Part shown: in pieces, positions 42,992-61,700 of the stretch
Layout: each line of letters begins with the position of its first letter
How positions within the stretch are numbered: position 1 is the first letter of the stretch
NCBI GenBank assembly: GCA_965248925.1
Contig: CBDFLE010000006.1
Location: 5,056,001 to 5,120,000, forward strand
Length of the DNA: 64,000 nucleotides
Reading direction: 5' to 3'
Origin: Candidatus Multivoradales bacterium
Lineage (GTDB): Bacteria; Acidobacteriota; Thermoanaerobaculia; Multivoradales; J023
Made by a program: the position numbers and the translations under genes
The notes under the pieces: generated by a model
Seen by the model: only the letters and a program-made list of their open reading frames with translations
Databases searched by the model: none
Told to the model about the DNA's origin: nothing

Positions 42992-44044
42992 ATGTCAGCC
43001 CCCAGCAACAAGCAGAAGAGTCTCAAGAGCCTCGGTAAGCTACGTCGGCGGTCGGTCCGCATCACGTCGAGTTCGTTGGTTGAGGAAGGGGCGATAGATC
43101 CAGGTCAGACCCTCCCCTGGAAGATTCACGCTACCCGACCCGATGTCAGCCTGCTGTCCTGGGCAGCGGACCACCGCGAGCATATTCGTGAGCTCGTCCT
43201 GCGCCACGGAGGGGTTCTTTTCCGCGGTTTCAAGGAACGTGGAGTAGAAGACTTCGAGAGCCTGATTGGCGTCGTCTCCGACAAGCTCTTGGAATACAAG
43301 GAGCGCTCTTCGCCGCGCAGTCAAGTCCAGGGCAACGTCTACACATCGACCGACTATCCGCCTGATCAGGAGATCTTTCTGCACAATGAGAACTCCTATC
43401 AAAGCGGTTGGCCGCAGAAGATTTTTTTCTTTTGCTTGCGGTCTGCGACAGAGGGGGGAGCGACGCCGCTAGCCGATTGCCGTCAGGTGTTTCAGCGGCT
43501 GGCGCCGGAGATTCGCCAGCGCTTTGATGATTTGGGTTGGATGTATGTGCGCAATTTCGGCGATGGCTTCGGCTTGTCGTGGCAAACAGTTTTCCAGACC
43601 GAGGATCGCGCGGTGGTCGAGGCCCATTGTCGTCGCAACGGAGTTGCGATCGAGTGGAAAGATGGGGGCCGGCTTCGTACCCGTGCCATCCGCCCGACGG
43701 CTTTGCGCCATCCGCAATCCGGCGAACTAACTTGGTTCAACCACGCGACGTTCTTCAACATCTCGACCTTGGCGCCGTCGATTCGTGAGGCTTTGCTGGG
43801 AGAATTCGCGATCGAGGACGTTCCCGCTCACACTTACTATGGCGACGGGACAGCGATCGAAAGCGAGGTTCTGGACGACTTGCGGCAGGCCTATAGCCAG
43901 GAAACTACCCGCTTCTCCTGGCAGGAAGGGGATCTGCTAATGCTCGACAACCTGACGGTAGCTCATGGCCGGGATTCTTTCGCCGGCGACCGCAAAGTGG
44001 TCGTCGGCATGGCCGAACCTGGTAGTTGGAGCGAGTTAGAGTGA
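42992..44044 (+). CDS. TauD/TfdA-family Fe(II)/2-oxoglutarate dioxygenase, SyrP-like
   Basis: GGVLFRGF, SSPRS, VYTSTDYP, LHNENSY, WFNH, DN..VAHGR; GGAG RBS. Confidence 0.92.
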   Translation: MSAPSNKQKSLKSLGKLRRRSVRITSSSLVEEGAIDPGQTLPWKIHATRPDVSLLSWAADHREHIRELVLRHGGVLFRGFKERGVEDFESLIGVVSDKLLEYKERSSPRSQVQGNVYTSTDYPPDQEIFLHNENSYQSGWPQKIFFFCLRSATEGGATPLADCRQVFQRLAPEIRQRFDDLGWMYVRNFGDGFGLSWQTVFQTEDRAVVEAHCRRNGVAIEWKDGGRLRTRAIRPTALRHPQSGELTWFNHATFFNISTLAPSIREALLGEFAIEDVPAHTYYGDGTAIESEVLDDLRQAYSQETTRFSWQEGDLLMLDNLTVAHGRDSFAGDRKVVVGMAEPGSWSELE

Positions 44045-45606: not shown

Positions 45607-46911
45607 GTGACGTCTTTGGCCCGGTCTGTGCCCCAGTCCAATCCGATCTCCGAGTCTGCCGCAGAATCGCCCTATCGGCACGAGGCTCCCCGGCGTTCGT
45701 TTCTGCGCGAGCAGGCTACCTTGGCGCGTTTGGCTTGGCGGACTCTCACCGAGATCTCCCCCCGAGCACTGCTCAAGATGCTCTACCTCTATGCCGGCAA
45801 AGGGGCGGCGGCGGTGTGGGCTTACAAACGGCGATTGGCCAAGGGCGAGCTGTACCCGCCTTTCTTGTTCATCGCCGTCACCAACACCTGCAATCTGCGC
45901 TGCCACGGCTGCTGGGTCGAGAAGGAAGGGCAAGCTCATTTCCTCACCGACCAAGATCTCGACCGGATGATCGTCAGCGGCAAGCGGCAGAAGTCCTACT
46001 TCTACACCCTGCTCGGTGGTGAGCCCTACCTGTTCAAGGGCATTTGGGAAGTCTTTGAGCGGCATTCGGATTGCTATTTCCAGACCATCACCAACGGCAT
46101 GTTGTTCACCGACGAGAATGTCGCCAGGCTGCGGCGCACTGGCAACGTGACGCCGCTGATCAGCCTCGACGGGTTCGAGTCGCAGAATGATTTGCGTCGT
46201 GGTGAAGGAGTGTGGGACGCGGCCCTCGCCGGCATGGAGCGGTTGCGGAAAGCGAAGCTCTTTTACGGCGTGGCGACCACCGCGACGGCGCTGAACATGG
46301 AAGAGGTCATGTCGGACGACTACGTGAACTTCTTTATTGAACGCGGCGCCATGTATCTCTGGTATTACGTCTACCGGCCGATGAGTCCCGAGCCGCACAC
46401 CGAGTACTGCGTCAGCGAAGAGCAGTTGCTGTGGATGCGGCGTCGCCTGCTGGAATTGCGCCGCCGTCACCCGATTCTGATTATCGACACCTACTGGACC
46501 GCTGATGGCGAGGCGTTTTGCCCGGCGGCCACCGGCCTAGGCTTTCACATCGGGCCGCAGGGATCGGTGGAGATCTGCCCGGCCCTGTCTTTCGCCACCG
46601 CCACCGTGCGTGGTGAGCGGGAAGACCTTTATGACACCTTCAACGGCAGCGATTTCTTGCGCGGTTTTCAGGGCTTCGTCAAAGAGCGCACCAAGGGCTG
46701 CGTGATTCTCGAGCATCCGCAAGAGCTGCGCGACTACATCGAAGACGCTGGCGCTCGGGACTACAGTGGGCGCGGCACCGCTTTCTCCGAACTCGGCGCG
46801 CTGTCGCCGCGGCATAGCCACCACCTGCCGGGGCGTGAGATACCCGAGGATTTCTGGTTTTATCGGTTGCTCAAGAAGAACGTATTCTTCGGCATGGGCG
46901 CCAACGGGTGA
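45607..46911 (+). CDS. Radical SAM protein with C-terminal Cys-containing extension
   Basis: CNLRCHGC, LGGEP, TNG, ISLDG; later FCPAA, EICP, GCVILE; AGGAG RBS. Confidence 0.92.
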   Translation: MTSLARSVPQSNPISESAAESPYRHEAPRRSFLREQATLARLAWRTLTEISPRALLKMLYLYAGKGAAAVWAYKRRLAKGELYPPFLFIAVTNTCNLRCHGCWVEKEGQAHFLTDQDLDRMIVSGKRQKSYFYTLLGGEPYLFKGIWEVFERHSDCYFQTITNGMLFTDENVARLRRTGNVTPLISLDGFESQNDLRRGEGVWDAALAGMERLRKAKLFYGVATTATALNMEEVMSDDYVNFFIERGAMYLWYYVYRPMSPEPHTEYCVSEEQLLWMRRRLLELRRRHPILIIDTYWTADGEAFCPAATGLGFHIGPQGSVEICPALSFATATVRGEREDLYDTFNGSDFLRGFQGFVKERTKGCVILEHPQELRDYIEDAGARDYSGRGTAFSELGALSPRHSHHLPGREIPEDFWFYRLLKKNVFFGMGANG

Positions 46912-48119
46912 GGGGTGATTCCGAGCCGGTGATCTACCTCGATCACCACGCCACGACCCCCTGTGATCCGCGGGTTCTTGAGGCCATGTTGCCGTATTTC
47001 ACGGAGAACTTTGGCAATCCATCGAGCACCCAGCATGCCTATGGTCGTCGTGCGGAGGCGGTGGTGGCGGCGGCGCGAGCCGAAGTAGCGGCGCTGATCG
47101 GTGCCAGAGCGAGCGAGATCGTCTTCACCTCGGGAGCCACCGAGGCCGACAATCTGGCTCTCTTCGGGGTGGTCGCGGCAAGCCGCTCGCGGGGACGCCA
47201 TGTCATCACCCAAGTGACCGAGCATCGGGCGGTGCTCGACGCCTGTGGCGAGCTCGAGCGCCAGGGCTGCGAAGTGACCTATCTGGTGGTGGAGTCTGAC
47301 GGTCGGGTAGATCCAGATCGAGTCGCGGCGGCTTTGCGATCCGACACAGTTCTGGTGTCGATCATGCTGGCCAACAACGAGATTGGAACGCTACAGCCGA
47401 TCGCTGAGATCGCCGCCCGCTGTCGCCGCCAGGGCGTACCGCTGCACACCGATGCGGCCCAAGCCCTGGCGCTAGTCGATTGCCACCTAGAGAGCCTAGG
47501 GGTGGATCTGATGTCCTTTTCGGCCCACAAGGCTTATGGCCCCAAGGGTATCGGCGCTCTCTATGTGCGCCGTCGCCAACCGCGAGTGCGGCTGCTGGCG
47601 CGGCAATTCGGCGGCGGCCATGAGCGAGGCCGTCGCTCTGGAACTCTCGACGTACCTTCCATCGTTGGTCTGGCCACTGCTAGTTCTCTGGTGACCGCGG
47701 AGCGTGACAGCGATGCCCGACGCCTGGCCGGCTTGCGGCAGCGCTTACTTTCGGGGTTGCGTCGAGCGCTTCCGGGAGTTGAGGTCAACGGTTCGCTCGA
47801 GCATCGATTGGCCAATAATCTCAATGTCAGTTTACCCGGGATTCATGCCGATCTCGTGCTGCAGGAAGTCTCGGGGGTGGCGTTTTCGAGTGGCGCCGCG
47901 TGTACCTCGCCAGCAGGTTCAAGTTCTCATGTGTTGGCGGCTCTGCCGGAGGGGCGCCAGCGGGCGGATAGGGCGCTGCGGTTCGGCTTGGGTCGTGGCA
48001 CCACCGCTGGCCAGATCGATGCTGCGGTGGCTGAGATAGCCAGGGCTGCCAGCGCGGTGGGGAGCCGGCCACTGGCAGCGGAAGAATCCTGTGCGGTAGC
48101 CGTCTGTGAGGTGCTGTAG
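46908..48119 (+). CDS. iscS: Cysteine desulfurase (IscS/NifS group I)
   Basis: IYLDHHATTP, FGNPSS, FTSGATE, NNEIG, HTDAAQ, SAHK (PLP lysine), SSGAACTS. Confidence 0.92.
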   Translation: MRGDSEPVIYLDHHATTPCDPRVLEAMLPYFTENFGNPSSTQHAYGRRAEAVVAAARAEVAALIGARASEIVFTSGATEADNLALFGVVAASRSRGRHVITQVTEHRAVLDACGELERQGCEVTYLVVESDGRVDPDRVAAALRSDTVLVSIMLANNEIGTLQPIAEIAARCRRQGVPLHTDAAQALALVDCHLESLGVDLMSFSAHKAYGPKGIGALYVRRRQPRVRLLARQFGGGHERGRRSGTLDVPSIVGLATASSLVTAERDSDARRLAGLRQRLLSGLRRALPGVEVNGSLEHRLANNLNVSLPGIHADLVLQEVSGVAFSSGAACTSPAGSSSHVLAALPEGRQRADRALRFGLGRGTTAGQIDAAVAEIARAASAVGSRPLAAEESCAVAVCEVL

Positions 48120-48131
48120 TTGAGAGACACG

Positions 48132-48650
48132 GTGAAGTTCAACAGCTTAGTGCCGTCGGAAGACCTGCCGCCGAAAAACCTACGACCGCGAGACTTCGTT
48201 CGCTTTCGCCGGCACCGGTTTGTCGCCAAATTCCCCCGCTCCTACCGCTACAGCCCGGCCCACTTCTGGCTCTGCGAAGACGAGGGCGTGCAACACATCG
48301 GCCTCACCCATTTCGCCACCCGGATGCTGGGGGAGATTGTTGAATTCGACTTCGAAACCAAACCCGGCAATGCAGTCGAGGATGGGCAGGTGATTGGCTG
48401 GATCGAAGGCATGAAAGCGGTGACCGATCTTTTCTGTGTGGCGCGCGGCAGCTTCGCCGGGGTCAACTCGACCGCCCTCGACGACCCCGAGTTGGTGTGC
48501 AAAGACCCCTATGGATATGGCTGGCTTTACGCCGTTCACGGCCAGCCCGGCACCGGCACTCTGGATCTCGACCAATACCTCGAAATGCTCGGCGAGACGA
48601 TCGACGCGATGGAGGAGCAGCCTTGGAAAACACCGCAGATGGCGACTTGA
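48132..48650 (+). CDS. Glycine-cleavage H-protein-like lipoyl carrier
   Basis: Y...H.W, IGLT.FA...LG.I, IEGMKAV (lipoyl-Lys position), N, DPYG.GWL; start 48132 (GTG) or 48120. Confidence 0.85.
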   Translation: MKFNSLVPSEDLPPKNLRPRDFVRFRRHRFVAKFPRSYRYSPAHFWLCEDEGVQHIGLTHFATRMLGEIVEFDFETKPGNAVEDGQVIGWIEGMKAVTDLFCVARGSFAGVNSTALDDPELVCKDPYGYGWLYAVHGQPGTGTLDLDQYLEMLGETIDAMEEQPWKTPQMAT

Positions 48651-49840
48651 GTCGCAGCCTGAAGAGCGCCGCCAACCTCACCGCCAACCGCGCTGCTAAG
48701 GCACCGCGGGCGCGCTACATGATGATCGGTGGCTTTCTCGGCGCCGGTAAGTCCACCGCTGTTGGTCAGCTGGCCCGGAGGTTCACCGAGCGGGGGATTC
48801 GGGTCGGTCTGATCACCAACGATCAAGGCCGTGGCCTGGTGGATAGCCGCAGCCTCAGACACCAAGGCTTCGCCGTGGAAGAGATCGCTGGCGGTTGTTT
48901 CTGCTGCCGTTTCGATTCGTTGAAGGGCGCCGCCGACCGCTTGACCAAGCAGCAGCGTCCTGAGGTCTTCATTGCCGAGCCGGTCGGTAGCTGTACCGAT
49001 CTGGTGGCGACGGTCAGCTATCCGCTGCGCCGCCTTTATGGCGACCGCTTCGCTATTGCCCCTCTTTCCGTGTTGGTCGATCCGCTGCGGGCGGCGCGGG
49101 TACTGGGGATCGAAGAAGGGCGGAAATTCTCCGCCAAAGTGCGTTACGTCTATCTCAAGCAGCTCGAAGAAGCGCATGTGCTGGTGATCAACAAGATCGA
49201 CTTATTGGACGATCTCAAGCGCCGGGCTTTACGCCGCGAACTTGCCGAGCGCTTTCCCACCGCACGGATCTTCGAAGTCTCGGCCCGCCAGGGAGCGGGT
49301 CTCGAAAAGTGGTTCGAGTATCTAGAGCAGAACTCCATCCCCAGTTCGCCGACCCTGGAGATCGATTATCAGCGCTATGGCGAGGGCGAAGCTCTGCTCG
49401 GCTGGCTCAACGGCACCCTCAGGCTGCGGGCTGATCAAGAACTCGACGGCAATGCCTGGACCGTGGCCTTCGCCCGTCGCTTGCAGCAGCGGCTGCTGGC
49501 CGAAGAGGTTGAAGTTGCCCACTTGAAGATGACCCTATCGCCGCTGGCCGAGGCCGGCAGTAGGGATGCCAACAGTGAAGACGAGGAAGTGCTGCCCGGC
49601 GATTTGGCCCTGGTCAACCTGGTTAACAACGACTTCGTTCCCGAAATCTCAGAGCGGTTGGCCGCGCCGTTGCGCCATGGGCAGTTAGTGGTCAATCTGC
49701 GTGCCGAGGCCGCGCCGGCAATCCTCCTGCGGGCTTTCGAAGCGGTGATCGATGGGCGCCCAGAGTTGCGCTTGGAACATGTCGAATGCTTCGAACCGGG
49801 ACAGCCGCGACCCACTCACCGGATGACTTTTGGGAGCTGA
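48623..49840 (+). CDS. CobW/P47K (COG0523) family metallochaperone GTPase
   Basis: GGFLGAGKS, ITND, GGCFCC, EPVG, INKID; start uncertain (TTG 48623 after GGAGGAG, or TTG 48647). Confidence 0.88.
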   Translation: MENTADGDLSRSLKSAANLTANRAAKAPRARYMMIGGFLGAGKSTAVGQLARRFTERGIRVGLITNDQGRGLVDSRSLRHQGFAVEEIAGGCFCCRFDSLKGAADRLTKQQRPEVFIAEPVGSCTDLVATVSYPLRRLYGDRFAIAPLSVLVDPLRAARVLGIEEGRKFSAKVRYVYLKQLEEAHVLVINKIDLLDDLKRRALRRELAERFPTARIFEVSARQGAGLEKWFEYLEQNSIPSSPTLEIDYQRYGEGEALLGWLNGTLRLRADQELDGNAWTVAFARRLQQRLLAEEVEVAHLKMTLSPLAEAGSRDANSEDEEVLPGDLALVNLVNNDFVPEISERLAAPLRHGQLVVNLRAEAAPAILLRAFEAVIDGRPELRLEHVECFEPGQPRPTHRMTFGS

Positions 49841-49845
49841 CCAGA

Positions 49846-50226
49846 ATGGAAACCACGGCAGCCAACTCAGCTGAACGGCGCATTCTTTACTGCCACTGCG
49901 CCTTCTCGCGGGTGGTGAAGGAGGAGGTGAAATCGGCGGTATTCGCTGGCCTGGCCAGCTCGGGCCAAGCCTTCGACGCCGTGCCCGATCTCTGCGAATT
50001 GGCCGCCAGGCAAGATCCGGCGCTACATCGACTGGCCGCCGGCCGCCGGCCGGTCGAAATCGTCGCCTGCTACCCGCGAGCGGTGCGTTGGCTGTTTCAT
50101 GCCGCGGAGGCTGATCTACCCGAGGACAATGTGCGGATTCACAACATGCGGGCCGAGGAGTCGACCACTATTCTCGAGCGCTTGCTCAAAGAAGACAGCC
50201 TCGCCGACCCGGAGACTAGAGGTTGA
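49846..50226 (+). CDS. Small Cys-motif protein, possibly Fe-S or metal binding
   Basis: ILYCHC...DLC...VACYPR pattern, reminiscent of HdrA N-terminal-like modules; GGGAG RBS. Confidence 0.7.
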   Translation: METTAANSAERRILYCHCAFSRVVKEEVKSAVFAGLASSGQAFDAVPDLCELAARQDPALHRLAAGRRPVEIVACYPRAVRWLFHAAEADLPEDNVRIHNMRAEESTTILERLLKEDSLADPETRG

Positions 50227-51044
50227 ACCCCTTACAACAAGACCGGCTGCGGGTGGTGATCGACCGCGGCGAGAGGCCAGCGGTAGCGCCACAAGTTGCG
50301 CTCTTGGAAAAGCTCCTGAGCAGCGGCGTGGCACTGACGGCGAGTGGCGAAGGTGCGGTGGCGCCGCTCGACGACGCCGAGCTGCTGGTGCTTGAGACCA
50401 CCACGAAAGCCAACGTTGAGACGGCGAAATCGACCGCCGAAGAAGGGGTCCAGCTGACCAAGATGGCGGTGGGTGGCCTCGACCCTGCCGAGGTTTTGAG
50501 TCGGGTCGAGGCCAAGGGCCAGGGCAAGCCGGCCGGTGGCTGGACGCCGTGGTTTCCAGTGATCGACTACGATCGCTGTACTAACTGCATGCAATGCCTC
50601 AGCTTCTGCCTTTTCGGGGTCTACGATGTCGACGCTGAAAAGCAGATCGACGTCAAGCATCCCGAACGTTGCAAGACCCTCTGCCCGGCCTGCTCGCGGG
50701 TCTGTCCGGAAGTGGCGATCCTCTTTCCCAAATACAAAGCTGGTCCGATCAATGGCGATGTGGTGAAAGACGCCGATCTGGCGCGGGAGAAGATGAAGAC
50801 CGATATCTCCTCCCTGCTCGGAGGCGATATCTACTCCTTGCTACGCCAGCGAACCGAGAAGGCGGCTTCCAGATTTTCCAAGGAACGCGACGAAGATCGA
50901 GCACTCAAAGAACGCCAGCGTTGTCTGGCCAAGCTCAAGAAAGATCTCGACATTCCCGACGAGGTCCTATCCCAACTACCGACCGCCGAAGCCATCCGGG
51001 CGCGCGCCAGCGAACTTCTGGCGGCGCGCACCAAGGGAGAATGA
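50223..51044 (+). CDS. 2x[4Fe-4S] ferredoxin-domain protein
   Basis: CTNCMQCLSFC and CKTLCPACSRVCP; 4-bp overlaps at both ends. Confidence 0.88.
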   Translation: MNPLQQDRLRVVIDRGERPAVAPQVALLEKLLSSGVALTASGEGAVAPLDDAELLVLETTTKANVETAKSTAEEGVQLTKMAVGGLDPAEVLSRVEAKGQGKPAGGWTPWFPVIDYDRCTNCMQCLSFCLFGVYDVDAEKQIDVKHPERCKTLCPACSRVCPEVAILFPKYKAGPINGDVVKDADLAREKMKTDISSLLGGDIYSLLRQRTEKAASRFSKERDEDRALKERQRCLAKLKKDLDIPDEVLSQLPTAEAIRARASELLAARTKGE

Positions 51045-52762
51045 TCATGCCACTGCCGGTGATGAGTCTGCCAAAGGTCATGATGCCGCGCCTCGAAAGG
51101 CCGGTGCAAGCCAATATTCCGCCGACCCGAGAGCAACGCGACGAGCTGCTGGCCCGGATCCGCGAATTCACTGCGACGACGGATCTGGTGCCGCCATTGC
51201 CTCTCGCTGACTTGCAGGTCGAGGCGGAGAAGATCTGTCGACGGCATGGATTTGATCCTGCCTTCAGCGAATTCGCCGCTCTGTTGATTAGCAACGAGTT
51301 GTGGCGTGAGTCGTTGGCCTCAGTGCCTTTCGAGCGCCGCCTGTTGCTGTTGCCCAAATGCATGCGGGTCGAAGAGCACTGCCCAGCTCCCTTCGATGAG
51401 TTGGGTCTGCTATGCAAGAAGTGTGGCCTGTGTTCGATCGAGGATCTGCAAGAAGAAGCCGAGCGCATGGGATATGCCGTCTTGGTGGCGGAGGGCTCGC
51501 CGATCGTCATGGCGATAATCGAGACCGGCCAGATCGAGGCCATCGTCGGGGTCAGTTGTCTCAACGTGCTGGAGCGGGTATACGGCTATATGGAGGCCGC
51601 GGCCATTCCCGGCATCGCCCTACCGCTGTTGCAAGATGATTGTCTGGACACCAACGTCGATCTCGATTGGGTGTGGGATTCAGTCCATCTGACCAGCGAC
51701 GACAAGACCCGGCGTTTGGATCTTGGCGGGTTGCGTGACCAGGTCGCCACCTGGTTCGGGGCGCTGGCCCTGCAGGAGATCCTGGGCGAAGCAGAGACCG
51801 AGACTGAAAAGATTGGCCAAGAGTGGTTGGCCCAAGGAGGCAAGCGCTGGCGCCCCTTCCTGACCGTCGCTCTGCATCAAGCCTTGCAAGAAGAACCCGG
51901 TGCCGAGATCTCCAAGGTCATCCGGCAAGTCGCCTTGGCGGTGGAGTGCTTCCACAAGGCTTCGCTGATTCACGATGACATCGAAGACGGTGATGATCTG
52001 CGCGATGGCCGCGAGACTTTGCACAGCCGGCTGGGGGTGCCCCTAGCGCTCAATGTCGGCGACTATCTGGTCGGCGAAGGCTACCGCCTGCTAGCCACCG
52101 TCGAAGCCCCCGCCGAAAGCATCGCGGAGATGCTGCGCTTGGCGGCGGAGGGGCATCGCACTTTGTGTCTGGGCCAGGGCGATGATCTGGCGTGGTCGCA
52201 AGAGCCCAAGATCCTGAAGCCGATCGAGGTGGTGAAGATCTTCAAGAACAAGACCGCGCCAGCTTTCGAAATTGCCTTGCGACTGGGTGCGGCCTGCGCC
52301 AGCGCCAGTGCCGAGTTGCACGACACCCTGAGCGCCTTCAGCGACGCCTTGGGAGTGGCCTATCAAATTCGTGACGATCTCGGCGAGTTGCGTGAAGCCG
52401 CTACCGCCGGAGAGGCGCCAGAACGCCGGCCGACCTTGGTCTGGGCGTTGGCCTATGCCGCGGCCAAGAAAGCGCGGCGAGCCGAGGTCAAGGCAGCGTG
52501 GATCGACGGTCAAGGAGCGCCGGCCGAGCTGCACGCCCTGTTGACCGATCTCGGTGCGGACACGAGAGCCGAGGAATTCCTCAACGCCTATCGAGACGAA
52601 GCGATCCGCTCTCTGCGGTTGTTGCAGGACGCCAATGTCAAGGGTCTCCTGCGGCGGGTGCTGGGCAAGATTTTCGACGAGCTCAAGATCGAGGGGTGGT
52701 GTAGTGAGTTTGAGACTGGAGATGTTGCAAGTCGCCAGGCTGGCGCCGCGGTTGCTGGGTGA
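51041..52762 (+). CDS. DUF116 plus polyprenyl diphosphate synthase fusion
   Basis: RRLLLLPKC, CKKCGLC, GVSC, PL...C (DUF116-like); GGKRWRP, HDDIED, GQ, KTA, YQIRDD. Confidence 0.88.
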   Translation: MIMPLPVMSLPKVMMPRLERPVQANIPPTREQRDELLARIREFTATTDLVPPLPLADLQVEAEKICRRHGFDPAFSEFAALLISNELWRESLASVPFERRLLLLPKCMRVEEHCPAPFDELGLLCKKCGLCSIEDLQEEAERMGYAVLVAEGSPIVMAIIETGQIEAIVGVSCLNVLERVYGYMEAAAIPGIALPLLQDDCLDTNVDLDWVWDSVHLTSDDKTRRLDLGGLRDQVATWFGALALQEILGEAETETEKIGQEWLAQGGKRWRPFLTVALHQALQEEPGAEISKVIRQVALAVECFHKASLIHDDIEDGDDLRDGRETLHSRLGVPLALNVGDYLVGEGYRLLATVEAPAESIAEMLRLAAEGHRTLCLGQGDDLAWSQEPKILKPIEVVKIFKNKTAPAFEIALRLGAACASASAELHDTLSAFSDALGVAYQIRDDLGELREAATAGEAPERRPTLVWALAYAAAKKARRAEVKAAWIDGQGAPAELHALLTDLGADTRAEEFLNAYRDEAIRSLRLLQDANVKGLLRRVLGKIFDELKIEGWCSEFETGDVASRQAGAAVAG

Positions 52763-53642
52763 TTCCACCGAGCTGATCCGCGATTTCACCTTGGCGGCGC
52801 AGGCGCCGGACGGGGGATTCCGCGACCGCGGCGGCGACAGCGACCTCTATTACACGGTTTTCGGCCTCGACGTGTTGGCGATTCTCGAGGGTCTCGGTGC
52901 TAGCGGTAGTGAAGGAACTCAGACAGATGCTGAGGTCTGGCGCCGTGCCGGAGGTTTCTTGGCTAGCCTGGGTCACCAAGATCTCGATCTAGTGCATCTG
53001 ACCTGCCTGGCGCGATCCGCGGCAGCCGTTGCCGCGGGAACCAAGACCGCGGAGCTGCCCATCGATCATCAAGTCCTGGTCGATCGTCTTCTAGATCTTC
53101 GCCGTCAAGACGGAGGCTGGGCGATGACCTCGGGGGATTCCTCCAGCACCACCTATGGCACATTCCTGGCCATCGGCGCCCATCAAGACCTAGGGCTGCC
53201 CTTTGCCGCCCCCTCCTCGGCAGCGGCTTTCCTGGCGGCGGCGGTCGGCGAAGACGGCGGCTACGGCTCTGCCCCTTCGATGCCGGTGGCGACCACGCCG
53301 ACCACCGCGGCGGCGGTGGTGGCGCTGCGTCAGCTAGGTGCCGAAGCTCACCCCCAGACCGCCCGCTGGTTGCGCCGTCAGTTGCATCCTCAGGGAGGAT
53401 TTGTGGCGGCGGCTGGAGCTCCGATGCCCGACTTGCTGTCCACCGCGGTGGCCCTGCATGCGTTGTCCGTCTTGCAGGAGCCATGTGCCGATCTGGTCGA
53501 TTCGCTGCTCGATTTTGTCGATAGCCTGTGGACCTCGCGCGGTGCCTTCTTCGGCCATTGGGCGGACGATGCAGCAGATTGCGAGTACGCCTACTACGGC
53601 TTGTTGGCCCTGGGACATCTGGCGGTTTGGAGCGACGGATGA
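52704..53642 (+). CDS. Prenyltransferase/squalene-oxidase-repeat protein (single alpha-barrel, prenyltransferase beta-like)
   Basis: Repeats QAPDGGF, RQDGGW, EDGGYG, QLHPQGGF with DLYYT, DLLST and DCEYAYY; GTG at 52704 after GAGGGG. Confidence 0.82.
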   Translation: MSLRLEMLQVARLAPRLLGDSTELIRDFTLAAQAPDGGFRDRGGDSDLYYTVFGLDVLAILEGLGASGSEGTQTDAEVWRRAGGFLASLGHQDLDLVHLTCLARSAAAVAAGTKTAELPIDHQVLVDRLLDLRRQDGGWAMTSGDSSSTTYGTFLAIGAHQDLGLPFAAPSSAAAFLAAAVGEDGGYGSAPSMPVATTPTTAAAVVALRQLGAEAHPQTARWLRRQLHPQGGFVAAAGAPMPDLLSTAVALHALSVLQEPCADLVDSLLDFVDSLWTSRGAFFGHWADDAADCEYAYYGLLALGHLAVWSDG

Positions 53643-55507
53643 GCATCGCGGCCGCGCGCAGCCCACCATCGCCAGCCAAGGCCTCCGCAGCCGAACTTGA
53701 CCGCGTCTTGGGTGAAGTGCGGGCCGAACTCGTGCGCCGTTTTCAGCCTCGTGGCCACTGGCGAGGCGGTTTGTCATCGAGTGCTCTGTCGACCGCGGTG
53801 GCCTGCTTCGCTATCACCTTGGTTAGCGAGCAGCGAGGACAGTGGCCAGAAGACTCGCGCGCCTTGGCCCGTCGCGGACTAGATTGGTTGGCTGCCCATG
53901 CCAATGCCGACGGTGGTTGGGGAGATACGGTCCGGTCGGTATCCAACTTGCCCACCACGGTTCTGGCCTGGGCTGCGCTGCGGGCGGCGAGGGACTCCGA
54001 AGTCGGTGCGGTCACAGGTCTTGCATTGGCCATCGACGGTGCCGAAAGCTGGATTGTGCGCCGCACGGGGGACTTGCAACCAGACTCGCTGCGACGGACG
54101 ATCGAAGACCTCTACGGCAAGGACAAAACCTTCTCCGTACCTATTCTCACCCTGGTCGCGCTAGCCGGGCTGCTGGGCCCAGAACCCGATTGCTGGCGCG
54201 GTATCACCCCTTTGCCTTTCGAGTTGGGGGCGTTACCCCAGGCGACTTTTCGCTTCATCGGCCTACCGGTAGTGAGTTACGCCTTACCGGCGTTGATCGC
54301 TGTCGGCCAGGTACAGCACCATCGTCGACCGTCGAAGAACCTGTTGGCGCGCTGGCTACGGCAGATCTTGCGCGCTACCACTCTGCGCCGCTTGCAAACC
54401 CTGCAGCCCTCGAGCGGTGGATTTCTGGAAGCGATTCCGCTCACTGGCTTCGTCACCTTGAGCCTCGCCGGAGCGGGGGAGTGCGATCACGCCGTGGTGC
54501 GAAAGGCGCAGGAGTTCTTCGCTCAGTCGGTGCGCGAAGATGGCAGCTGGCCGATCGATGTAGATCTGGCCACCTGGATCACCACCCTGTCGATTCAGGG
54601 ACTGCGAGAATCAGGGGGAGTGGCAGCAGCGGTGGGCGTGGCTGGGGTGGCAAGCTTACGCCGCTTCTTGCTCCAACAGCAGTACAAAGAGATTCACCCC
54701 TTCACCGGTGCGGCTCCCGGAGGCTGGGCCTGGACCGATCTGCCGGGGGGCGTTCCTGATGGCGACGATACTCCTGGAGCGGTCTTGGCCCTGCGGCATC
54801 TCGGACCAATCGACGACCAGGTTCGGGCCGCTGCCGCCGCCGGTTTGCGCTGGCTTATCGGCTTACAAAATCGCGATGGCGGCATACCGACCTTTTGCCG
54901 CGGCTGGGGCACCCTGCCCTTCGATCGCAGTTCTCCCGACCTCACCGCCCATGCACTGCGCGCGATCCACGCCTGGCGCGACGAGCTTGCTGAGGACCTT
55001 CGGTCCAGCCTCGATCTCTGTGCCCGCCGCTGTCGGCAGTATCTGCACCGGGTCCAACACGCCGATGGCTCGTGGGTACCCTTGTGGTTTGGCCACGAAG
55101 CTGCGCCGTCGAACGAGAATCGGGTCTTTGGAACCGCCCGAGTTCTGCGCGCCTTGGTCGAGTTGCAGGATCCTACGGTGGCATCGATGATCGAGGCCGG
55201 CCGAGCCTACTTGCTAGCGGCCCGCAACAACGACGGAGGTTGGGGTGGCGGCGAGGGCATCGCTTCGTCGATGGAGGAAACCGCACTAGCGCTCGATGCG
55301 CTGTCGCGTCTAGAAGACCCAGATCTAGCACCAATTCTTCAGCAAGCCGCCGGTTTTTTGTGCCGGGCCTGGGATGCTGGCCGCTTCAAGCAGGCGACAC
55401 CGATTGGTTTTTACTTTGCTAATCTGTGGTACTTCGACGACGCCTATCCGCTGGTCTTCACCGCGGCGGCGCTGGGGCGGGCGCAGGGGGTCCTGGCGGT
55501 GCGTTGA
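53639..55507 (+). CDS. Squalene-hopene-cyclase-like class II terpene cyclase
   Basis: GHWRG.L, NADGGWG, GGWA, PDGDDT (DxDD), QNRDGG..TF, QHADGSW...W, NNDGGWG, EET, YP; ATGA overlap. Confidence 0.88.
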   Translation: MSIAAARSPPSPAKASAAELDRVLGEVRAELVRRFQPRGHWRGGLSSSALSTAVACFAITLVSEQRGQWPEDSRALARRGLDWLAAHANADGGWGDTVRSVSNLPTTVLAWAALRAARDSEVGAVTGLALAIDGAESWIVRRTGDLQPDSLRRTIEDLYGKDKTFSVPILTLVALAGLLGPEPDCWRGITPLPFELGALPQATFRFIGLPVVSYALPALIAVGQVQHHRRPSKNLLARWLRQILRATTLRRLQTLQPSSGGFLEAIPLTGFVTLSLAGAGECDHAVVRKAQEFFAQSVREDGSWPIDVDLATWITTLSIQGLRESGGVAAAVGVAGVASLRRFLLQQQYKEIHPFTGAAPGGWAWTDLPGGVPDGDDTPGAVLALRHLGPIDDQVRAAAAAGLRWLIGLQNRDGGIPTFCRGWGTLPFDRSSPDLTAHALRAIHAWRDELAEDLRSSLDLCARRCRQYLHRVQHADGSWVPLWFGHEAAPSNENRVFGTARVLRALVELQDPTVASMIEAGRAYLLAARNNDGGWGGGEGIASSMEETALALDALSRLEDPDLAPILQQAAGFLCRAWDAGRFKQATPIGFYFANLWYFDDAYPLVFTAAALGRAQGVLAVR

Positions 55508-55740
55508 CGGGTGGCTGGGGAAGGTTTGAGGTCAGCGGCGAAACTCCGTGGTGGCGGTTTTCGAACTAAGATCTTCTCCGTTTTTCGGGCATCTCCCAAA
55601 GAGGATTCGAGTCCCTTCAGGAATTTCTCTCGGTAGTGTTGTCAGGGGTGCGAGCAGGGATTGGTTTGCTAGTGTTATTTGAGCATTTCCTACCCCGGAA
55701 CACGCTTGGACCGCACCTCGGAAGACCTCCAACGCTAGCT

Positions 55741-58700
55741 ATGGCAACTCCACCCGTCTGTTCATCGCCGGCCTCAGCAAACAACCTGGTAGACCTGCTG
55801 CGGAGGCGTAGCAGGCAGCACCCTGACCGTATCGCCTTCATTTTCCTCAGCAATGGCGAGGAGGAGGGCGAGCGTCTGACCTATGGCGAACTCGATCAGC
55901 GGGCGCGGGTTCTCGGTTCCCATCTGCGCCGCAAGCTGCCAGCCGGTGAGCGGGCGCTGCTGCTCTATCCTCCTGGTTTGGAACTCATCGTCGGTTTCTT
56001 CGGTTGTCTCTATGCCGGCATGGTCGCTGTGTTGGCCCACCCGCCGCGCGGCCGGCGGACGCTGCCGCGCCTGGCGGCGATCGTTGCCGACGCCGCCCCT
56101 GGAGCGGTACTGAGTCAGACCGTCGAGATGCGCCGGATTGCCGCCTGGGCGAAGCAAGTTGAAGCTCTCGCTCGGGTCGAGCTGATCGCTTCGGATGCAC
56201 TCGCCGAGGAACTCGCCGACGGGTGGCGCGATCCACGAAGCGAGCCGCAGACACTGGCTTTCCTGCAATACACCTCAGGTTCCACCGCCGCTCCCAAAGG
56301 AGTGATGGTCAGCCATGGCAACCTGCTGCACAATGAACGCTTGATCCAGTCTGCCTTTCGCCAACCCGAGGGGACGGTGGTGGTCGGTTGGTTGCCGCCG
56401 CAGCACGACATGGGTCTGATCGGCAATGTAATACAACCGTTGTACATGGGTGGCCGCGCCATCCTGATGTCACCGGTGGCCTTTCTGCAGAGTCCGGTTC
56501 GCTGGCTGCGGGCGATCGATCGCTACCGGGCGAATGTCAGCGGTGGTCCCGATTTCGCTTACCAGCTGTGTGTCGATCGCATTGAGCGGCAGCTGTGTTC
56601 AACGATCGATTTGAGCTCCTGGGAAGTGGCCTTCAATGGCGCCGAGCCGGTGCGTGAGGAGACCCTGCGGCGGTTTTCCGAGCATTTCTCCGACGCCGGC
56701 TTCAGCGCCGCGCGGTTTTTCCCCTGCTATGGCCTGGCTGAAGCTACCTTGCTGGTGTCGGGTGGCCGCCAGGCCGCCGAGCCTGTGCGGCGGCTGGTGT
56801 CGTCGAAAGCCCTGGCGCTCGACCAGATCCGTCCGCCGGAGCCTGGCGATGAGGCCGGCCGTTGGTTAGTGAGTTCTGGCCGCTGCCATCCCGAGGTCGA
56901 GGTGGTGGTGGTCGAGCCGCAGACCGGCCGACCTGTAGAGCCCGGTGAGGTCGGCGAGATCTGGGTGTCGGGGCCGAGTGTTGCCGCCGGCTACTGGCAC
57001 AATCGCCAGGCCACCGCGGAGATTTTCGAAGTTGCCGTAGCCGGTCGGCCGGGGCGTTTCTTGCGTAGCGGCGATCTGGGCTTTGTCGATCAAGGAGAGC
57101 TCTTCGTCACCGGCCGGCTGAAGGATCTGATCATTATTCGCGGCCGCAACCACTACCCGCAGGATCTAGAGTTGACCATGGAGGGGTGCCACCCAGCGGC
57201 GATCAGCGGCCGTGGCGCGGCGTTTTCGGTAGATCGGGGAGGAGGAGAACGCTTGGTTCTGGTGCAAGAGGTGCTGCGCGATGCTGACTTGGTCGTCGAA
57301 GATCTGCTGAGCACCGTCTGTCAGGCCGTTGCCGAGCTGCATGAACTACAGGTTGAAGATCTGCTGCTGATCCGCCGTGGTTCTTTGCCGGTCACCACCA
57401 GCGGCAAAGTGCGTCGCCGACGGTGCCGCGAACTCTATCTCCAGGATCGACTGCGGGTGGTGGCGCAGTGGGGTCGCCAGCAGGGCGCGGCCAGCGCGGT
57501 GGGTGGCGTCATTGCCCGGCCTAGCCTTGACCGGCTGCGGACGATGGACCGGGAGCAGCGTCGGACCACTTTGGGGCCCTACCTATTGCAGCAGTTGGCG
57601 GACGGTCTGGAGATCGATGTCGCCCAACTCCGTCCGGATCGACCGTTGACCGCCCAGGGACTCGATTCGCTGAACGCGCTGGAACTCGGGCATCGGGTCG
57701 AGTCAGAGTTCGCTGTGAGGTTGTCGGTCGCCGAGCTGTTGGCCGGGGCGAGCCCGAGACAGGTGTTGGAGCGGCTGGTGGATGGCATCGACACGCGATC
57801 CAGCGCCAGTCCTGAGCACCGCCCCGAGAATTCGCTTGGAGACGCCCTTTCCTACGGCGAGAAATCGCTCTGGTTTCTCCATCAGTTGGCGCCCCTGAGC
57901 GCTGCCTACAACTTGTTCGGAGCGTTGCGGGTGCAGCCGGCTCTCGATCCTGGCCGGCTACGTCGGGCGGTGGCGGCCCTGGCCCGTCGGCATCCGGCGC
58001 TGCGCACGACCTACGGCACTCGCCAGGGCCAGCCCTATCGCCGGGTCGCGGCCGCCGCGGAAATGGCCGTGAACGTGGCTGTGGAGATTGAGCCTACTGC
58101 CGGCTGGAGCGTAGCGAAGCAGCATTCGCGAATGGTCGAACTGGCGCATCAGCCTATCGATCTCGAATCAGGACCGCTGCTGCGGGTGGTGCTGTTCACT
58201 GCTGATACCGACGACAGCCGGCTGTTGCTGGTGCTGCATCACATCGTCGGTGATTTCTGGTCGTTGGCCATTCTGGCGCAGGAATTGGGTCTGCTCTATG
58301 ACGATCTAGAATCTGTCTTGCCGACCTTGCTGACAACCTATGCTGAGTCCGTGCAACTGGCGGCGGCCGACCTTGATGGGCAGCGCGGCAAGGTCGATTG
58401 GAAGTACTGGCGGACGCTGCTCGCCGCCGCGTTCGAGGATCTCAATCTGCCCACTGACCGGCCGCGACCGGCGTCGCAGACTTTTGTCGGCGATCGCCGT
58501 CTGATCCACTGGCCGGCGCCTTTGAAGGCGGCGGTCGAGAGTTTGGCCAAGGACCATGGGGTTACTGTTTACGTAGTCTTGTTGGCGGTCTTTCAGGTGC
58601 TGCTGCACCGCCTGTCCGGCCAATCGAACTTTGCTGTCGGCTCACCTTTCGCCGGCCGCGAGCGGGCCGAACAGAAGAGTGTGGTCGGCTATTTCGTCAA

Positions 58701-61700
58701 TACGCCGGTGTTGCGGGCCGAGTTGGCCGATAGTCCGACCTTCTCGACTTTTCTTGGTCGGACTCGTGACATGGTGCTGGCCGCCCTGGAACATCAGTCT
58801 TTCCCCTTTGCCCTGCTCGCCGAGCGCCTGCGCCCGCAGCGCGATCCGTCACGGTCGCCACTCTTTCAGCACCTCTTCAGCTGGCACCGGCTACCGCCCG
58901 GCGCGCCAGCCGGTCTCACCGCTTGCGGCGTTGGCGAGGCTGGAATTGAGGTCGTCCTCGGTGAATTGCGGGCGACCAGCTTGTCGATCGCCAATCTCTC
59001 GGCGCAGTTTGATCTCGCTTTGTCGATCACCGAGGTCGACGATCAGCTGGTCGCTTGCTTGCAATTCAATACTGACCTTTTCGACTCCACTACCGCCCAG
59101 AGGTGGCTGGACAACCTGACCACGTTGACCACCACATTGACCACCACGGACAGTGCCGCGGCCGATCGGCCGCTGTCGCGATTAGAGCTGCTCAGTGCGG
59201 GGCAGCGTCAGCAGTTGATGGTTGAATGGAATGCCACCGAGCGGTCGCCGGCGGCCGACTCGGTAGGTGGCGTCGGCGCTGGCTTTGCCGCCCAGTTGGC
59301 GCGTTGGCCGCAGCGGATCGCTGTCGAGGACGGTTCAGGCCAACGCAGCTACGAAGCGGTGGATCGTCTGGCATCGGGGGTTGCGGAGGCCTTGCAAGGT
59401 CGCGGTCATGGGCCGCGATCGCGGATCGGAGTCTTTCTCGTCCGTTCCCTCGACCTGCCCGCAGTGCTGCTCGGCATTCTCCGTGCTGGCGCTGCCTACT
59501 TGCCGCTCGATCCGCGCTTTCCAGAACCTCGGCTGGAGATGATGATTGCCGACGCGCGGCCGGCGGTAGTGATTGTCGAGGATCAGCCGCCGGCTTTCAT
59601 CACCGCGTCGGGTGCCGAGCCGCTGCGCCTCGGCGAACTCCGCTCGCGGCTGCCGAGTCGTCGTCGAACTTACGCCGAACCAGCGGCGGAAAGCCTGGCC
59701 TATGTGCTTTTCACCTCAGGCTCTAGCGGCCGGCCCAAAGGAGTGCAGATCTCCCACCGGGCGCTCAACAATTTTCTGGCATCGATGGCAGAGCGCCCTG
59801 GGTTGACCGCCGAGGATCGTCTGCTGGCAGTCACTACTCTGTCCTTCGACATTTCCGTATTGGAGATCTTCCTGCCCCTGATGGTAGGTGCTCGACTGTG
59901 CTTGGCGAGTTCTGCCGCGGCGGCCGACGGCGAGGCTTTGGGCGAGTTGTCGCGGCGCTGGCGAGCGACCGTTTTGCAAGCTACACCGACCACCTGGCGG
60001 CTGTTGCTGGTGGCTGGCTGGTCGGGGAGCAACCAGCTCACCGCTTGGTGCGGCGGCGAAGGGTTGCCGGCCGACCTGGCTACCGCATTGTTGCAGCGCT
60101 GTGCTCGGCTGTGGAACCTCTACGGCCCGACCGAAACGACGGTGTGGTCGGCGATCGAGCGGATAGAGATGCCAATCGGGCGAATTGCGGTCGGTCGGCC
60201 GATCGCCAATACCAGGATTCAGCTTCTCGATCAGGCCCTTGAAGCTCGGCCGATCGGAGTTCCCGGAGAGCTATATATCGCCGGTGACGGTCTGTCCCAA
60301 GGCTACCTCGGCCGGCCCGCCTTGACCGCTGAGAAATTCCTACCGGAAGTGTCCGAGGGGCGTTCTGGTGCACGGATGTACGCCACCGGTGATCTTGCCC
60401 GATGGCTCGCCGATGGTCGGCTGGAATGTCTCGGTCGCACTGATCACCAGGTCAAGGTGCGCGGTTTTCGCATCGAGCTCGGTGAAATCGAAGCGGCGAT
60501 CTGCGCTCATCCAGAGATCCGTCAGGCGGTAGTGGTGGCTCGCCCCCAGCACCATGGCGACGCCGATCTGGTGGCCTATCTGGTCGCCGGCAGCGAAATC
60601 CAATGGGAAGATCTGAGGGTCGAGCTGCGGCGCTCATTGCCGGACTACATGGTACCGAGTAGGGCGGCTTTTCTGCTGTCGTTGCCGCTGACGCCGAATG
60701 GCAAAGTAGATCGTCGGCGCCTGCCGGAGCTGGCTGCTAACGCACCGCGGGGAGGGGGGGGAGAGTTGCGCTCGCCGCTGCAGGAGCTGCTCGCCGGGTT
60801 GTGGAGCGAGCTGCTGTCGGTTGCCGTGGTCGGGCCTCGCGACAACTTTTTCGAACTTGGCGGGCACTCCCTGAAGGCTGCCCAGCTGGCGGCCAGGGTT
60901 GGTCGTGCGGTGGCGGTCGAGCTGCCGGTGAGGAAAATTTTCGAAGCACCGATTCTGGCCGACCTGGCGACCGCTATCGAGCAGCTGCAGGGCCTTCCAC
61001 CGGCGCCAACGGAAGTTCTTTCGCGGGTCCCTGAGGATGGTCGGCGGCTGTCTTTCGCGCAACAGAGACTGTGGTTCTTCGATCGCCTGCAGCCGCTCAG
61101 CAGTGCTTACAACATGGCCGCGACGGTGGGCATCGAGGGCCGGCTGGAGCCAGCATCGTTGCGGGCGGCGCTACTTGGAGTCGTGCGTCGCCATCAGATC
61201 CTACGGACTGCCTATCCGGAGCGCGACGGGGAGGCCGCGGTAGAAGTTCTTCCCACCGTCGAGATCGAGTTGCCGCAGCTCGACTTGAGTTCCTTGGCGC
61301 CGGGTCTCCAGCGCCGGCAAGTGGCGGTGTTGGCAGCGGCGGAAGCTCGCCGGCCTTTCCGCCTCGACCGCGCACCCTTGCTTCGGGTTTGCTGGATTCG
61401 GCTTGGCGCTGCGGTTCATCAGCTGCTGATCACCGCTCACCACATGGTTGCCGATGGCTGGTCTATGGACCTGTTTTTCGATGAATTTACCGAACTCTAC
61501 TCGGCGGCGGTCGAGGACCGACCGCCGCGGCTGAGCCGCTTGAGAGTGGATTATGCCGACTACGCCGCCTGGCAGCGCCTAGCTCTGAGCAGCGCGGGAC
61601 TGGCCGCGGACGTAGCCCATTGGCGACAGAAGCTAAGCGATCCGCCAACCCTCGATTTGCCAACCGACCGGCCGCGGCGGGCGGTGCAGAGTTTTCGCGG

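Follow-up and report, generated by a model that had tools for sequence, protein, structure and literature searches.

The 'SHC-like' (squalene-hopene cyclase-like) proteins were defined by Santana-Molina et al. (2020; PMC7306690), in whose excerpted text those of Planctomycetes alone among them retain the catalytic residues and the genomic context suggests a precursor other than squalene. Excerpts of a later survey, 'The Evolutionary History and Modern Diversity of Triterpenoid Cyclases' (2025, MBE; PMC12414744), state that the function of the SHC-like proteins is not demonstrated and that there is no structure, give the range of the clade as the PVC group, the FCB group, Spirochaetota and Acidobacteriota, and place it as the sister of epoxy-polyprenyl cyclases whose substrates are head-to-tail C25 and C40 chains. 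They also report that substitutions are unusually dense at the SHC-type dimer surface on the SHC-like stem. Here we describe a nine-gene operon built around a putative cyclase of this clade. It lies at 45607-55507 on the + strand of a 64,000-nucleotide stretch of DNA, hereafter the window, from Candidatus Multivoradales bacterium (Acidobacteriota; GenBank assembly GCA_965248925.1, contig CBDFLE010000006.1, positions 5,056,001 to 5,120,000 of the forward strand).

The sporulenol route of Bacillus (HepS/HepT, YtpB and SqhC) resembles the operon in that its SHC-family cyclase receives a non-squalene C35 substrate from a polyprenyl synthase (PMC7306690, in excerpt). It differs in that the operon holds no YtpB-type enzyme, while the sporulenol cyclase belongs to another clade and its route has no radical S-adenosylmethionine (SAM), Fe-S or GcvH partners. 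A second component of the operon, DUF116, was predicted by Makarova et al. (2015; PMC5898192) to be a flavodoxin-like, metal-binding, electron-transfer domain, and the excerpted text notes its fusion to a polyprenyl synthetase in Pirellula staleyi Psta_0175. The legend of Fig. S12 in a preprint (10.1101/2025.11.21.689855), seen in excerpt, describes a cluster of a stand-alone DUF116 gene, IspH, SHC, an HpnH-annotated radical SAM gene and a polyprenyl synthetase in a cultured Bipolaricaulota strain, a possible independent echo of the association between DUF116 and a cyclase.

A nine-gene operon ends in a non-canonical class II cyclase

The operon consists of nine co-directional open reading frames (ORFs), overlapping or near-abutting in the ORF listing of the window. 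All were present over the span for which an earlier note, made from the DNA letters alone, had claimed nine tightly packed genes. Start codons were picked from Shine-Dalgarno-like purine-rich bases upstream together with the N-termini and lengths of orthologues. The genes, with lengths in amino acids (aa), are as follows.

45607-46911, +: g1, radical SAM enzyme, 434 aa; PF04055, CxxxCxxC
46908-48119, +: g2, IscS/NifS-type cysteine desulfurase, 403 aa; PF00266
48120 (or 48132)-48650, +: g3, GcvH-like lipoyl-carrier-type protein, 172-176 aa; PF01597
48719 (ATG; alternative TTG at 48647)-49840, +: g4, COG0523/CobW-type GTPase, 373 aa; PF02492
49846-50226, +: g5, four-Cys protein, 126 aa; no Pfam or NCBIfam family
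50223-51044, +: g6, ferredoxin-domain protein, 273 aa; Fer4_10 and related Pfam families (4Fe-4S dicluster)
51041-52762, +: g7, fusion of DUF116 and a trans-polyprenyl diphosphate synthase, 573 aa; PF01976 and PF00348
52722-53642, +: g8, single alpha/alpha-toroid protein, 306 aa; PF00432 (Prenyltrans)
53639-55507, +: g9, putative 'SHC-like' class II terpenoid cyclase, 622 aa; PF13249 and PF13243

Overlaps of 4 to 41 bases were found at five or six of the eight junctions, depending on the start of g4: 4 bases at g1/g2 and g5/g6, ATGA overlaps at g6/g7 and g8/g9, 41 bases at g7/g8, and at g3/g4 either a 4-base overlap (TTG 48647) or a 68-base gap (ATG 48719). The remaining gaps were 0-12 bases at g2/g3 and 5 bases at g4/g5, and AAGGAG stands upstream of the GTG start of g1. 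The domain assignments of the earlier note were each regained with Pfam. None of the nine proteins reached the cut-off of an NCBIfam equivalog; therefore, they are not named housekeeping or hopanoid enzymes.

The last protein, g9, matched PF13249 (SQHop_cyclase_N) and PF13243 (SQHop_cyclase_C) above their cut-offs and has the two-toroid (gamma plus beta) architecture of class II cyclases, with repeats of the xxxQxxDGGW type in its translation. Its DxDD motif, D374-G-D376-D377, lies within VPDGDDT. By phmmer, PDGDDT aligned on PDVDDT (D374-D377) of the Alicyclobacillus SHC (1gsz) and DLTAH on the SHC stretch holding His451, so that H438 is the His451 equivalent. D374, D376, D377 and H438 were kept in 120/120 aligned homologues, as in class II cyclases of the DxDD kind. 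The two-domain toroid, the DxDDT, the histidine and the QW-like repeats are thus shared with the Alicyclobacillus enzyme, which differs in that g9 matches it overall at only 43 bits, has no operon link to hpnCDE or sqs, and coexists with true SHC or oxidosqualene cyclase (OSC) genes in 2/5 genomes. Against TIGR01507, the squalene-hopene cyclase equivalog, g9 scored 72.7 bits with a cut-off of 431.1 (57.1 bits in a six-frame search of the genome), and against TIGR01787 it scored 100 bits with a cut-off of 322.7. No canonical SHC was found in the genome of the window (8.0 Mb, 6 contigs): its best TIGR01507 match is g9 itself, and its PF13243 matches fall inside g9 only. These results demonstrate that g9 is not a canonical SHC, in line with the expectation of the earlier note.

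The g9 family is large, with at least 8000 matches at E <= 0.001 and identities of 49-64% among the 120 matches listed; at least 563 of 569 matched stretches were confirmed as relatives in a collection with one genome per species. By its PVC/Acidobacteriota range, its length (within the 550-700 aa of the clade), its retained catalytic residues and its non-squalene context, rather than by placement in a tree, g9 fits the published 'SHC-like' clade. The DUF116 fusion, the DxDD-less toroid, the radical SAM, four-Cys, GcvH-like and CobW-type proteins and IscS do not figure in the excerpts of the published text.

The cyclase co-occurs with a DUF116-synthase fusion

Among 121 genomes of the window's phylum, g9 was found in six, including G000 and the unpublished G054 (5/120 without G054), and DUF116 in 21. 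Long DUF116 frames (579-1040 aa, hence fused) occurred in exactly the six genomes with g9, and the frames of the other 15 did not exceed 495 aa. The long frame lay close to g9 in five of the six genomes and about 10 kb off in the sixth. The Planctomycetota sample gave the same picture: g9 was present in 33/151 genomes and DUF116 in 60, and a hand tally found DUF116 frames of at least 546 aa in 32 of the 33 genomes with g9 (G250 had none) versus 1/118 without it, namely G216, with a weak 57.5-bit match. Furthermore, all five Verrucomicrobiota-labelled metagenome-assembled genomes (MAGs) in which g9 stands alone hold a full-length g7 orthologue elsewhere, at 52-57% identity; most of the cluster surrounds that copy in one of them, g8 and an IscS-like gene in another, and g7 is alone in three. 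These results show that the cyclase and the DUF116-synthase fusion occur almost exclusively together.

Stand-alone DUF116 genes were also encountered. Those of four low-GC Planctomycetota loci (L115, L116, L117 and L119; 147-165 aa) have the same three neighbouring ORFs, mirrored in one locus, which read from their N-termini alone as def-like, fmt-like and rsmB-like, with DUF116 between the last two.

Linkage is kept across phyla while gene order varies

The nine proteins of the window were compared by tblastn (E <= 1e-5) with the best 80 g9-related loci, of which 46 have at least 8.5 kb upstream of g9 and form the flank-sufficient set. The 80 loci carry the labels Acidobacteriota, Planctomycetota, Verrucomicrobiota, Lentisphaerae/Victivallales, Hydrogenedentota and Sumerlaeota, and one is from a MAG labelled Chitinophaga. 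The full set of nine genes was present in 13/80 loci, with Acidobacteriota, Planctomycetota, Verrucomicrobiota and Hydrogenedentota labels among them. Within the flank-sufficient set, g6 was found in 33 loci, g7 in 32, g8 and g5 in 29 each and a g1-type radical SAM gene in 20, and g6, g7 and g8 occurred together with g9 in 27. The earlier note had staked its proposal on the co-occurrence of the genes in other genomes, and this was borne out both by the nine-gene loci in several phyla and by the coupling of cyclase and fusion.

Gene order differed among the loci. The radical SAM and IscS genes come first in the window and in three Acidobacteriota-type loci. Most other loci read GcvH-CobW-Cys-Fdx-rSAM-synthase-toroid-cyclase, sometimes with IscS after the cyclase, and in Planctomycetaceae the order is GcvH-Fdx-cyclase-synthase, sometimes followed by the toroid gene, with the radical SAM and CobW genes divergent. 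Since linkage is kept though the order is shuffled, shared function is favoured over an inherited frozen block.

This pattern bears on whether the operon is one system at all. It could instead hold two unrelated adjacent modules, one of Fe-S, sulfur and redox housekeeping (g2-g6) and one terpenoid (g7-g9), without a common product. For such a split one may cite the many loci in which g2-g4 went undetected, the dispersal of the genes in some Verrucomicrobiota-labelled genomes and the unrelated contexts of stand-alone DUF116. The 13 nine-gene loci of several phyla with varied order argue otherwise, as does the presence of g5 and g6 alongside g7-g9 in 29/46 and 33/46 loci; moreover, translational overlaps join both sets of genes, and g2 and g3 are extra copies rather than sole ones (see below). 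We consider the split improbable.

In four of 26 loci (L018, L038, L057 and L060), which are Pirellulales and Phycisphaerae-type and have no GcvH-like, CobW-type or IscS-like genes, a longer ORF of another family (506-598 aa) takes the g1 slot between the ferredoxin and synthase genes. The two of these ORFs that were scanned (L018:5845-7434 and L060:5635-7428) encode radical SAM proteins with similarity of the B12-binding type (TIGR04013, 80-88 bits against a cut-off of 251). Such non-orthologous replacement at one position suggests that the pathway includes a radical SAM step. The long radical SAM was the sole extra recurrent family in the loci examined ORF by ORF, and no recurrent epoxidase-like family was found beside the cluster there.

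Several lineage-specific genes were noted in or beside the cluster. Genes for major facilitator superfamily (MFS) transporters occur at L038:7702-9129, L048:7672-9075 and L066:8644-9927, which hints that a product or precursor is moved across the membrane. In two Schlesneria-type loci (L042:4377-6165 and L067:6552-8291), the genes directly upstream of the GcvH-like gene encode a DegT/DnrJ/EryC1-type aminotransferase dependent on pyridoxal phosphate (PLP) and a conserved protein of about 180 aa without a Pfam family; other lineages have IscS near the cluster in place of this aminotransferase. L046 carries a methyltransferase gene. These extras fit a decorated, transported small-molecule or lipid product. 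A further locus, in a complete Planctomycetales genome (G127:C1:3621323-3622600; L110), has a match to the radical SAM gene of the cluster with one in-frame TGA.

The synthase of g7 may make chains beyond C20, and g8 resembles a cyclase domain

The fusion protein g7 matched PF01976 (DUF116) at 117 bits and PF00348 (polyprenyl_synt) at 144 bits with a cut-off of 27. No other piece of the operon is as conserved as its DUF116 part, where mean column identity is 71% and seven cysteines are invariant, those of CxxCxxC included. This is the sole DUF116 in the genome of the window. Archaeal DUF116 proteins (PF01976, COG1852; PMC5898192, in excerpt) share the Cys-rich CxxCxxC domain; they differ in having two N-terminal membrane helices and other neighbours, and a link between the fusion and an SHC-like cyclase goes unmentioned in the excerpted text.

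The synthase part has the motifs of trans-polyprenyl synthases. The first aspartate-rich motif (FARM) is DDIED in 26/26 sequences, the second (SARM) is DDxxD in 25/26, the window copy reading DDLGE, and KRWRP of the isopentenyl diphosphate (IPP)-binding motif GGKRWRP is conserved among the orthologues. An aromatic residue at -4 or -5 before the FARM stops elongation at C15-C20. In g7 and its orthologues these positions are Ser at -4 and Ala at -5 (26/26), and Tyr occupies -5 in the best-matching solved enzyme, the geranylgeranyl diphosphate (GGPP) synthase 1wy0. With Ala where a chain-limiting aromatic would stand, the product of g7 is probably longer than C20.

The toroid protein g8 matched PF00432 at 51 bits, and hhalign placed it on the beta domain of the g9 family with a probability of 88% (E 2.8e-6), its invariant PDLLST falling on PDADDT of that family. 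By this alignment, g8 is a paralogue of the cyclase beta domain that has lost DxDD. A role as the beta subunit of a protein prenyltransferase was disfavoured: the best profile match is the cyclase beta domain, and no conserved Asp/Cys/His zinc triad was seen. A predicted complex of g9 with g8 scored 0.00, with a mark of 0.32, which speaks neither for nor against binding.

The operon stands apart from hopanoid and squalene genes

Canonical hopanoid clusters carry hpnCDE or a squalene synthase, and the earlier note had reported both missing from the operon. None was found there, and the sole SQS_PSY match of the genome lies about 4.3 Mb away, at C6:814290. SQS_PSY genes likewise failed to turn up in the related loci with the nine-protein tblastn, which had no squalene synthase query. 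A canonical hopanoid cluster was rejected on HMM scores and gene context.

Squalene could still be the substrate in a triterpenoid route, with g7 giving farnesyl diphosphate (FPP), the distant SQS_PSY protein making squalene, g9 cyclising it and the radical SAM enzyme decorating the product as HpnH, HpnP and HpnR do. SQS_PSY genes are indeed present in the window genome and in 5/5 other cyclase-positive genomes tested. The two-domain SHC architecture and DxDD of g9 would suit such a route, as would the detection of the SHC-like gamma domain by a 'triterpenoid' hidden Markov model (HMM; PMC12414744, in excerpt) and the place of radical SAM enzymes among hopanoid tailoring enzymes (PMC13459092, in excerpt). 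Set against this, g9 is linked to a polyprenyl synthase with Ala at -5, no link to SQS_PSY was seen, and g1 scored 37.5 bits against HpnH (TIGR03470), for which the cut-off is 225, and is thus no HpnH by this model. A canonical SHC or OSC gene accompanies the SHC-like gene, at a separate place, in 2/5 genomes, and in G127 an SQS_PSY pair sits beside the canonical SHC, about 1.5 Mb from the SHC-like gene; such coexistence argues for a separate role of the latter. A non-squalene precursor was also inferred by Santana-Molina et al. (PMC7306690, in excerpt). The squalene-based route therefore appears unlikely to us.

Fe-S, radical SAM and carrier proteins g1-g6

The radical SAM protein g1 has the motif CNLRCHGC (CxxxCxxC), conserved in 20 sequences, and matched PF04055 at 60 bits (cut-off 29.5), which places it in the radical SAM superfamily; three more conserved cysteines lie at its C-terminal end. 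Among named enzymes it comes nearest to those of the SPASM/twitch type, whose cut-offs it misses by far (NirJ2, 64 bits against 500), and its best sequence match in the PDB is SkfB at 44 bits. The best 25 of its 49 NCBIfam matches include no LipS model. The g1 family counted 1483 matches at E <= 1e-20, with identities of 63-82% among the 120 matches listed.

The desulfurase g2 matched PF00266 (Aminotran_5) at 247 bits and two IscS models at 445 and 433 bits (cut-offs 548 and 643), and SAHK and SSGAACTS motifs were found in its translation. The carrier-type protein g3 matched PF01597 (GCV_H) at 70 bits; at 69.6 bits against TIGR00527 (cut-off 115.85), it falls short of a glycine cleavage H protein, and no gcvT or gcvP was found within the operon with Pfam. 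Lys95 of g3, in the lipoyl-attachment motif E-G-(F/M)-K-A-x-(S/T)-D, was kept in 18/18 orthologues. A second IscS-like gene at C6:2046508 is 40% identical to g2, and another GcvH-like gene at C6:657293 is 38% identical to g3. Since more distant IscS-like and GcvH-like genes thus exist elsewhere in the genome, g2 and g3 are, by this sequence comparison, dedicated second copies.

The GTPase g4, with orthologues of 369-382 aa, matched PF02492 (cobW) at 76 bits (cut-off 20.7). It has a conserved P-loop and GCFCC, the CxCC metal motif of CobW-type GTPases; the CobW equivalog was matched at 40 bits against a cut-off of 332, and the ZigA equivalog was also unreached. The small protein g5 has four cysteines (C16, C18, C50 and C75) invariant in 17/17 sequences and falls into unnamed clusters only in the Atlas. 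Its AlphaFold2 (AF2) model has a pLDDT of 87, with alternating strands and helices in a flavodoxin-like arrangement, and points to a probable metal or Fe-S electron carrier. This confident fold of a 126-aa domain ruled out a precursor peptide of the RiPP (ribosomally synthesised and post-translationally modified peptide) type. Two conserved ferredoxin-type cysteine clusters, CTNCMQCLSFC and CKTLCPACSRVCP, were found in g6, the PorD/HgcB-like matches of which are under cut-off. Proteins of the types of g2, g3 and g4 could equally serve Fe-S maturation or dithiol redox.

Sulfur-oxidising sHdr systems have lipoate-binding GcvH-like proteins together with the radical SAM enzymes LipS1/LipS2. They resemble the operon in the GcvH paralogue with a conserved Lys that stands beside radical SAM and Fe-S genes, away from those for glycine cleavage; they differ in that the operon has no Hdr subunits or lipoate ligase and its context is isoprenoid. 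Protein prenylation offers a further parallel, as allylic diphosphates alkylate thiols there in reactions catalysed by toroid proteins. Both the dedicated IscS and the GcvH paralogue with its invariant Lys could be taken as the core of a sulfur-centred pathway, in keeping with the possible sulfur insertion proposed in the earlier note. Sulfur would be inserted into the isoprenoid, or relayed to it, by g3, g2 and the radical SAM enzyme, or the polyprenyl chain would be tethered to a dithiol arm, to yield a thio-terpenoid or carrier-bound intermediate. It would agree with this that GcvH-like and ferredoxin genes adjoin those of cyclase and synthase even in the reduced Planctomycetaceae arrangement, and that SkfB, which among solved proteins is closest to g1, though at 44 bits only, forms thioethers. 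We nevertheless find a sulfur-centred pathway distinctly unlikely: signatures of lipoate ligase, LipA, LipS-type enzymes and methylthiotransferases all fell short of cut-off, g8 is without the Zn ligands of protein prenyltransferases as judged by conserved columns, and IscS-like and GcvH-like genes were undetected in many loci. Moreover, a desulfurase is equally expected where four Fe-S or metal proteins need loading.

Neighbouring genes fall outside the system

A TauD-family dioxygenase gene (42992-44044, +) lies upstream of the operon, and a divergent TPR gene on the - strand stands between it and g1. Downstream, a nonribosomal peptide synthetase (NRPS) gene of more than 2788 codons begins 129 bases after g9 on the same strand (55636-64000) and runs past the end of the window, with three AMP-binding, two condensation and two PP-binding stretches. 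This closeness, together with the TauD gene upstream, is what would make the operon the terpene half of a hybrid NRPS-terpene cluster. By tblastn, matches to TauD, TPR or NRPS were found in 0/80 related loci; therefore, these genes are neighbours outside the system. As the divergent TPR gene also separates TauD from g1, the hybrid cluster was rejected as barely credible.

Further upstream, at about 39590-39955, are two short fragments resembling TauD (pieces 63-74% identical), and four more TauD paralogues occur elsewhere in the genome. Three other features upstream are unrelated to the operon: a TPR-CHAT protein of 1127 aa (32728-36111); a gene with sigma-70 region 2 followed by a zf-HC2 zinc-finger gene (36695-38247), probably encoding an extracytoplasmic function (ECF) sigma factor with its anti-sigma factor; and a membrane protein of the TerC family (38359-39138). 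A simple scan revealed no sigma-70-like promoter, and terminator-like sites were no commoner than in shuffled sequences, which leaves the operon boundaries unaddressed. The stretch is present in four public sequencing runs of one study, none of those listed being RNA.

Discussion

On balance, we lean towards a self-contained, oxygen-independent isoprenoid pathway around an SHC-like class II cyclase, the outline of which is held with more confidence than any of its details. The product of the operon is probably a cyclic isoprenoid lipid. Going by its motifs, the synthase of g7 would elongate an allylic diphosphate with IPP to a regular head-to-tail polyprenyl diphosphate, probably longer than C20. 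The DxDD motif and histidine of g9 suggest that it would protonate the terminal double bond and cyclise the distal isoprene units, giving a polycyclic polyprenoid and not squalene-derived hopene. A non-catalytic accessory or substrate-handling subunit would be provided by g8, and the altered SHC-type dimer surface of the clade (PMC12414744, in excerpt) would fit a changed partner such as this. The radical SAM enzyme g1 may then modify the isoprenoid by radical chemistry, with low-potential electrons reaching it via g6, g5 and perhaps the Cys-rich DUF116 domain. The desulfurase g2 and the CxCC GTPase g4 might load the four Fe-S or metal proteins, and g3 might give dithiol reducing power or sulfur.

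Lon15 (C40) and AtoE (C25) of the sister clade use all head-to-tail polyprenyl substrates, which fits the linked synthase of the operon (PMC12414744, in excerpt). They differ in needing an epoxidised substrate and hence oxygen. We suggest an oxygen-independent route here because the Fe-S and radical SAM partners are oxygen-sensitive, no recurrent epoxidase was found and DxDD is intact.

Several observations weigh against this pathway. Every functional step in it is read from sequence. Short-chain and long-chain enzymes resemble the synthase domain of g7 about equally well, the domain reached no equivalog, and the SQS_PSY genes of all six genomes named above would allow a squalene supply. The best PDB folds for g5, MvhD (5odc_D; the [2Fe-2S] subunit of heterodisulfide reductase complexes) and flavodoxins, are weak matches at E 0.036 and TM 0.40, none being at E <= 0.001. 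The predicted DUF116 model (pLDDT 70) likewise had no match among solved folds at E <= 0.001, which gives the domain no fold assignment. In the 46 flank-sufficient loci, GcvH-like genes were found in 22 and CobW-type and IscS-like genes in 17 each, that is, undetected in about half to two thirds. The cluster-linked IscS-like copies of other phyla are 33-62% identical, no closer than the second copy of the genome itself (40%). Two radical SAM families occupy one slot, and the chemistry may vary by lineage. As g9 was solitary in 11/46 of these loci, and g7 too stood alone in three of five such genomes, the system is not always an operon. Finally, the neighbourhoods of stand-alone DUF116 genes held no isoprenoid genes at nine loci in the window's phylum and five in Planctomycetota; at those nine, the only matches were one IscS-like match to g2 and, among g1 and g3-g9, weak ones to the DUF116 part of g7 in two. 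The domain itself is therefore uninformative on isoprenoids.

The earlier note had presented the operon as an undescribed pathway. Its co-occurrence across genomes and its non-canonical cyclase stand, and no characterised product of the gene combination was found in the open-access literature, where excerpts of PMC12414744 call SHC-like function not demonstrated. The nine-gene set met with no description in open-access full text and bioRxiv, supplements not covered, and supplementary figure S10 of PMC7306690 (in excerpt) may already show part of the gene context. The interpretation of the note is partly borne out, with the qualification that the cyclase family had already been named 'SHC-like' there. 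New here are the full conserved accessory set, the coupling of cyclase and fusion, the identity of g8, the four-Cys flavodoxin-like g5 and the dedicated IscS and GcvH copies.

We know of no organism that makes tricyclohexaprenol. A more specific proposal, to which we give little credence, is that the operon makes, without oxygen, polycyclic regular polyprenoids of the tricyclohexaprenol type, long postulated as the biological source of the tricyclic terpane (cheilanthane) biomarkers in petroleum and old sediments. The chain would be made by the Fe-S/DUF116-coupled synthase, folded by a heteromeric pair of active and dead cyclases, and functionalised or tethered in a lipoyl-carrier-dependent radical SAM step. 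Tricyclohexaprenol is the proposed parent of tricyclic terpanes (PMC12980184, in excerpt). If true, the lipoyl-carrier-dependent radical SAM step would be terpenoid chemistry not yet described.

Taken together, the operon represents a widespread, conserved and biochemically uncharacterised pathway; the orphan cyclase clade at its centre already has a name in the literature. What the SHC-like cyclases act on and what they make is a named open question in the evolution of sterol and hopanoid cyclases. The gene set points to the likely substrate-forming enzyme, the DUF116-polyprenyl synthase, and to a probable partner subunit and redox and radical SAM helpers, and it thereby makes the substrate question of the clade directly testable; helpers absent from a heterologous host could render single-gene expression uninformative. 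The operon also provides DUF116 with a first consistent functional partner. As the cyclase family is very common, a cyclic lipid made by these groups could be relevant to membrane biology and to the reading of the biomarker record.

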